Positions 20,165 to 20,408 of a stretch of 64,000 bases of DNA are shown here, in pieces. The stretch is taken from the NCBI GenBank assembly GCA_964016885.1, contig OZ024743.1, positions 111,104,001 through 111,168,000 on the forward strand, in the 5' to 3' direction. A program made the translations under genes and the position numbers. This DNA is from Eledone cirrhosa. Lineage: Eukaryota. Position 1 is the first letter of the stretch. Each line of letters starts with the position of its first letter. A model generated the notes under the pieces. That model had not been told where the DNA came from. It saw only the letters and a program-made list of their open reading frames with translations, and searched no databases.

Positions 20165-20408
20165 TAGTTATATATATATTGTTATATATGTATATATATA
20201 TATTGTTATATATGTATTGTTATATATATATATATATATTGTTATATATATATATATATATATATATATTGTTATATATATATATATATATATATATATA
20301 TATTGTTATATATATATATATATATATATATATATTGTTATATATATATATATATATATATATATATATTGTTATATATATATATATATATATATTGTTA
20401 TATATATA
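20165..20408. repeat. Compound microsatellite [(TA)n-TTGT]m
   Basis: About nine TATTGTTATA units separated by variable (TA)n. Confidence 0.95.

Follow-up and report, generated by a model that had tools for sequence, protein, structure and literature searches.

A (TA)n array whose interruption matches a Penelope-like element junction: possible origin of a compound microsatellite from the end of a retrotransposon

Does a complex unit that recurs within a (TA)n array record repeated copying by a reverse transcriptase (RT), or the growth of an interrupted microsatellite? The locus that raises this question lies in a 64-kb window (the whole stretch of DNA that was analysed) of AT-rich, animal-type DNA (GC 0.318) with many (TA)n tracts and decayed retroelements, whose repeat motifs hint at a possible cephalopod source. 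A first-pass annotation had marked a compound array at 20165..20408, whose unit was said to equal the priming site of a repeat family, family A, and had taken it for an independent instance of reiterative, abortive synthesis of cDNA by a Penelope-like element (PLE). We find the compound (TA)n tract to be wider, spanning 20112-20415 (no strand assigned), with TT, AA and GT interruptions in its left part and nine TATTGTTATA units in its right part (20177-20402, plus strand). The nine TTGT units are identical to each other as assembled and are separated, in order, by spacers of 10, 5, 9, 13, 15, 14, 15 and 11 dinucleotides (range 5-15), giving periods of 14-34 nt and no tandem of 6, 8 or 10 nt. 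Each of the first two spacers carries a TG at an equal offset, three TA units after TTGT. One unit has a TG-TA lead-in identical to that at the family A junction at 1472, a coincidence that we estimate chance to produce in about 1/5 of such arrays.

The reverse complement of the unit, TATAACAATA, occurs 16 times in the window, nine times on the minus strand of the array (20177-20402) and seven times elsewhere. Five of the seven lie in family A (1472, 10299, 12127, 37472 and 56177), and the two at 30543 and 63113 have no relation to it. The claim that the reversed unit is a family A segment is therefore borne out, nine units and five family A copies carrying the 10-mer. Shuffling gives an expectation of 2.19 occurrences against the 16 observed, a comparison that exaggerates significance because the nine array units are not independent.

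Two of the family A copies stop at the 10-mer in TA tracts and three extend 55-57 nt further, as far as a second TA junction, so that the 10-mer is internal in these three, as had been proposed. The two that stop are found at 1390-1481 and, as a piece of about 40 nt, at 10267-10308 (both plus strand). Both do end in (TA)n at the 10-mer as claimed, with the qualification that a CA precedes the (TA)17 of the former and that the latter is followed by only (TA)5. Among the longer copies, that at 12045-12191 (plus strand) continues 55 nt past the 10-mer (12127-12136) to the second (TA)n end, and that at 56121-56232 (minus strand) ends in (TA)35. The third, a diverged copy at 37440-37538 joined to (TA)28, closes a decayed PLE stretch (35334-37538, plus strand) with an ORF at 35334-36967 and a degenerate hammerhead-like motif at about 37232-37275. 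Family A has in this way an optional tail with two ends 55 nt apart, 12136/7 and 12191, each of which meets (TA)n.

A minimal type I hammerhead (11957-11999, plus strand) with an intact CTGAAGA/GAAA core, a helix I of 4 bp and a helix II of 7 bp was found 142 nt upstream of family A on the same strand, and its helix lengths agree with those published for PLE hammerheads (PMC4209133). An inverted copy of the hammerhead region (11806-11885, minus strand) lies at the 5' side of the same insertion and is the inverse of 11957-12036 at 96% identity. A hammerhead scan of the window returned three matches against 0-1 in ten shuffles; two of the three are 11957-11999 and the inverted copy at 11881, and the degenerate motif at 37 kb is not among them. 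Rfam gave no hammerhead match and only sub-threshold simple-repeat matches among the matches listed (best 150 of 215 for the window; also for 11780-12200), and folding analysis of family A did not speak for a hammerhead there (z +1.7, +0.8 and -0.3). The decayed ORF matches protein P0001 (E 1.6e-69), and P0001 is weakly similar (E 0.002) to an ORF of the window that has RVT_1 and GIY-YIG matches, below or above the cut-off. A Pfam search of P0001 found no match, and because of this the PLE identity that we presume for the ORF at 35334-36967 rests on the PLE motifs recognised. The hammerhead at 11957-11999 together with the plus-strand ORF at 35-37 kb sets the RNA sense of family A as plus at 12 kb. 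We therefore rejected the reading of family A as an antisense tail of neighbouring minus-strand GIY-YIG elements, and with it the 10-mer as a hammerhead cut site or a 5' truncation point. A hammerhead, a tail and an inverted 5' copy are all present, supporting the identification of family A as the 3' end of a PLE. A family A 25-mer had no exact match in the metagenome, viral and genome contigs.

Other arrangements of these elements were seen in the window. At 12192-14170 and 37539-39644 the 3' end of family A faces the 3' end of a minus-strand GIY-YIG element across (TA)n; identity between the two partners is about 73%, and this tail-to-tail pairing may reflect targeting or co-mobilisation. 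At 56121-56428 a family A piece is directly joined to family B sequence within the family B palindrome. A 5'-truncated PLE ORF with RT and GIY-YIG matches occupies 58116-60521, its 5' end joined to a 575-bp TG-interrupted TA array. A 407-bp direct repeat (21460-21866 and 22981-23380, 97%) surrounds a minus-strand GIY-YIG-like fragment in a pLTR-like arrangement. Finally, a repeat of about 200 bp, which we take to be of a SINE-like class, has copies that are 70-91% alike at 9947-10169, 12774-12990, 15521-15741, 29381-29596, 31069-31285, 31545-31758 and 45205-45618.

The generality of the family A junction was seen in public contigs. Contigs of four of the six runs (X1, X2, X4 and X6; three studies, X1 and X2 being one sample) were placed on 12037-12191 at 80% likeness, numbering 5552, 6159, 5364 and 99, respectively. 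Position 12136/7 is the best-supported right-hand loose end among those listed, with 173 contigs in X1, 160 in X2 and 206 in X4, and with three in X6. It is thus the top right-hand loose end in three of the four runs, and the description of this site as a priming site therefore holds: the 10-mer marks a real and general family A priming site, a major (TA)n junction in related samples. In X1, X2 and X4 the loose ends at 12137 have a consensus of more than 20 letters of pure (AT)n (agreement 0.53-0.62); ACAA is absent from this consensus, which is blind to a minority or to units at variable offsets. Four joints among those listed (one in X1, one in X2 and two in X4) return from 12136/7 to 12100-12103, and these are compatible with re-priming after a short product, with sequential insertion or with duplication.

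What lies on either side of the array is not family A. At its left a 60-bp family C fragment (20052-20111, plus strand), a hammerhead-like region whose core is cut at the 5' side, abuts the array with its 3' end and (TA)9 with its 5' end; within the window it is 95-97% identical to 26922-26981 and 62409-62468. At its right a T run (20416-20428, no strand assigned) closes the array and the next 35 nt are single-copy in the window; no family A sequence was found at either flank. The longest family C copy (62316-62500, minus strand) contains the hammerhead-like motif with its core CAGAAGA at 62470, and a further copy lies at 26918-27015. The motif at 62425-62475 (minus strand) has three helices and CAGAAGA instead of CTGAAGA. 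The array starts at the same family C junction at which the 26917 copy joins TA, and the TA tract at 26850, on that junction, is pure TA. A decayed LINE (23434-26850, RVT_1 match with E 1e-23) ends at the TA tract before this family C copy, and a second 3' piece lies at 9038-9264. In the TA array at 61646-62315, TG interruptions give way to TT toward the family C end; TT corresponds to the first bases of the family C internal junction and is also a common single substitution.

The match between array and family A was set against a null of 225 complex 4-mer interruptions, composition-weighted, in one window and with definitions made post hoc; six array intervals were masked for the 10-mer test. 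When the 10-mer had to belong to a multi-copy family and to sit at a junction with (TA)n, TTGT was the only 4-mer to qualify (1/225, 0.8%), and at any junction eight of the 225 did so (5.6%). With the 8-mer bracket, 9/225 (7.1%) satisfied the first of these definitions and 19/225 (13.6%) the second. The match thus appears modestly beyond chance, at 0.8-14% depending on the definition, and its support for a link stays modest because the nulls are post hoc and come from a single window. As many as 86 of the 225 10-mers are found somewhere outside arrays, and TATTGTTA has 19 occurrences there. The GT interruption of the array likewise matches a junction of another family (41447/10299 flanks), and such matches therefore arise easily. 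AATG, the interruption of the window's other large complex array, also matches the start of a repeat family.

Arrays of this kind also exist elsewhere. A pattern of three TTGT units was found at 69 loci, 67 from metagenomes and 2 from the viral collection, a few of which duplicate one another. At least three TTGT units with pure (TA)k spacers were present at 22 of the 69, and long variable spacers at eight, seven of which have a common contig-name prefix. With up to 3 mismatches allowed and flanks taken to at most 400 bp, none of these outside array loci had the family A 17-mer, and no common element was found in the flanks; several of the metagenome loci adjoin (TAT)n. The interrupted-TA architecture arises without family A nearby, and some other genome is rich in the TTGT interruption. 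The collection of genome contigs gave no TTGT locus against four and three for two control 4-mers, counts too small to speak of enrichment. One contig-name prefix is shared by 19 of the 67 metagenome loci (L001, L007, L018, L020, L021, L024 and L053 among them), the flanks of which are unrelated.

How, then, was the array made? One answer is that a PLE RT can carry out telomerase-like repeat addition at an internal start site, writing (TA)k-TTGT arrays and sometimes leaving no element behind. We regard this as unlikely; the same activity would perhaps account for a large part of the (TA)n that borders PLE ends in this genome. The family A RT would have primed on (TA)n, copied about 7 nt and stuttered on UAUA to add TA, an improbable course in our judgement, and its continuation is equally doubtful: realignment to AUA/AUAU 6-8 nt downstream, nine such cycles, and then an abort or a switch to family C RNA. 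The template does have the A-B-A' form that this needs (TAT..TAT with a period of 6, ATA..ATA with a period of 8), and homologies of 2-3 nt are enough in DRT10 (PMC12632851). The orientation is coherent, the 10-mer site being the 3' end, the rare head-to-tail joints from 12136/7 to 12100-12103 in X1, X2 and X4 could be read as re-priming after a product of about 36 nt, and one unit shares the TG-TA lead-in of the 1472 junction. The annotation's TAT/ATA bracket is thus present in the template, but the realignment that it was thought to allow predicts spacers of 1-2 TA and those of the array are 5-15. Neither the 6-nt nor the 8-nt period is found in the array, and the model therefore needs a second, stuttering mode; it also has to end in an abort or switch after which nothing of family A remains, family A sequence being absent on both sides. 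Nor did TTGT arrays adjoin family A copies, as had been expected, an extra unit being present in none of the five family A junction tracts of the window (0/5). The TG shared by the first two units is not in the template, the loose-end consensus at 12137 in X1, X2 and X4 is pure (AT)n (a weak test), and the tandem joints could equally be sequential insertions or DNA duplications. The sole characterised PLE starts in vitro without target homology (PMC11167929). A literature search, mostly of openly available main texts, turned up no report of PLE RTs carrying out reiterative synthesis, and the accessible portion of PMC13282606 holds nothing on it. The array behaves as an interrupted microsatellite and has neither the period nor the contiguity of RNA-templated repeat addition; with no flanking family A and periods that do not fit, the proposal of an independent case of reiterative abortive cDNA synthesis is not supported.

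A stronger competitor, which we consider a serious possibility even if not the leading one, is that TTGT arose by mutation within a TA tract, that DNA slippage then multiplied it and that its match to family A is a coincidence. Three positions set the unit apart from pure TA, a difference that could be reached, for example, by a TAT-phase slip and one transition or by loss and gain around GT/TG. The ease with which such 10-mers are met outside arrays (86/225, and TATTGTTA 19 times), the GT interruption that matches another family's junction, the 67 metagenome TTGT loci from a collection in which the family A 25-mer is nowhere matched exactly, several of them beside (TAT)n, and the control 4-mers with four and three loci against none for TTGT in genome contigs all speak for it. 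It is opposed by the strict null (0.8-5.6%), by the matched site being the dominant junction of an abundant family, and by the AATG of the other large complex array, which also matches a repeat-family start. Low-complexity tracts are difficult to assemble, and the array could also have been made by a family C RT on a variant template, or inflated by an assembler that over-expanded a short interrupted tract, which we hold to be quite improbable, the least so favoured of the readings weighed here. It would account for the position of the array at a 3' junction of family C that is common to the 26917 copy, and family C does carry TTGTTAGTT upstream of its hammerhead; the difficulty of assembling such a tract is a further point in its favour. 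However, the array unit was sought in family C sequence past the junction and is absent there, the TTGTTA of family C belongs to the RNA-sense strand, no interruption breaks the TA of the 26850 tract at that junction, and nine identical units are unlike random read error.

Multiplication at the DNA level, taken overall, seems to us probable, and slightly over half of that probability goes to a PLE origin of the seed. We accordingly lean, tentatively and with somewhat less than even confidence, toward reading the array as an interrupted (TA)n microsatellite that lies where a PLE was inserted, and in which one PLE-derived seed was multiplied at the DNA level. The TA tract on which a family A RNP primed would have been this one or another, and only about 7 nt (TTGTTAT) would have been left; alternatively, a family A junction may have been cut back to a remnant of this length, TTGTTAT. 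The single interruption with its flanking TA would then have been multiplied by slipped-strand mispairing or unequal exchange, after which the spacer lengths would have drifted separately through ordinary slippage. Family A often joins (TA)n exactly at the 10-mer, and at this locus a family C fragment stands between two (TA)n tracts. In favour of the seed, TTGT alone among the 225 4-mers passes the strict definition (7.1% do so with the 8-mer bracket), and the 10-mer site leads the right-hand loose ends in X1, X2 and X4. The seed claim is weakened because TTGT arrays occur outside with no family A motif nearby, and no seed intermediate was seen.

Growth at the DNA level is suggested by the non-templated TG common to the first two units, an argument from two units only, set in a background where TG/CA interrupts 103 of 3204 TA units. 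The eight outside loci of like build, with no family A motif in their flanks, and other arrays of the window point the same way. In the AATG array at 4382-6921, 49 consecutive interruption tokens recur in order about 1 kb apart with slightly altered spacers; this duplicated block could be a real duplication or an assembly artefact, and because it lies inside the array the unit count there is not a count of RT cycles. This is the first array, on which the annotation's claim of independence depends. At 8186-8282 a junction unit is repeated with spacers of 6, 6, 7 and 6. The autocorrelation of neighbouring spacers gives P=0.007 at 4382-6921 and P=0.097, non-significant with eight spacers, in the array studied here. 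We further observed blocks of derived variants in the 4382-6921 array. The four-unit array at 8186-8282 has an RT-like fragment (8290-8400, minus strand) on one side and a GIY-YIG fragment (7561-8185) on the other, with GCG repeat brackets. At 2705-3160 a family B insertion includes an inversion and a tandem copy of 134 bp that starts again from the same site; TA with AATG interruptions borders it on either side, and the locus is better suited than the array at 20165 for a test of re-priming.

On the reading that we favour, the locus would be a small case in which a compound microsatellite grew from the end of a retrotransposon, within a genome that closely intermingles PLE pieces with (TA)n. 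If reiteration by the RT were true, it would be genomic evidence that the RT of PLEs, the sister group of telomerase RT, adds template-reset repeats, and it would reverse the usual view of PLEs as only targeting pre-existing (TA)n. The family A start site is abundant and well defined, and is suited to the counting of repeats.

Interrupted and compound microsatellites grow by slippage. Like them, the array has drifting dinucleotide spacers, an interruption repeated on one strand and, in its first two units, a derived variant in common; unlike theirs, its interruption alters three positions and matches the end of a retroelement, where a point mutation would be usual. (TA)n is a known preferred target of EN+ PLEs (Neptune, Naiad, Hydra), with which family A shares a 3' region containing a hammerhead, an inverted copy on the 5' side, a choice of two 3' ends and junctions with (TA)n (PMC8557442). 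The published tail is 30-40 nt, compared with 55 nt here, and repeated element-derived units in the targets are not among the features described in the accessible portion of that work (PMC8557442). Poseidon PAc of Anolis resembles family A in its internal RT start sites downstream of the hammerhead, which define a 'tail', and in its AT-rich targets; it starts without homology to the cut DNA, whereas the family A start site has a TA homology of 3-4 nt, and the accessible portion of the report mentions no repeat addition (PMC11167929). Template slippage is known on LINE 3' repeats such as the TGTAA of UnaL2 (PMC3747384), and DRT10 products have a fixed period as a rule (PMC12632851). As in telomerase, DRT10 and LINE slippage, the short template of family A lies in a direct repeat that could permit realignment (PMC12632851, PMC3747384). 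The repeats made by LINE slippage remain joined to their element, whereas the array has no adjoining family A (PMC3747384), and the products of telomerase, DRT10 and LINEs keep the fixed period of their template, whereas the period of the array varies from 14 to 34 nt (PMC12632851, PMC3747384).
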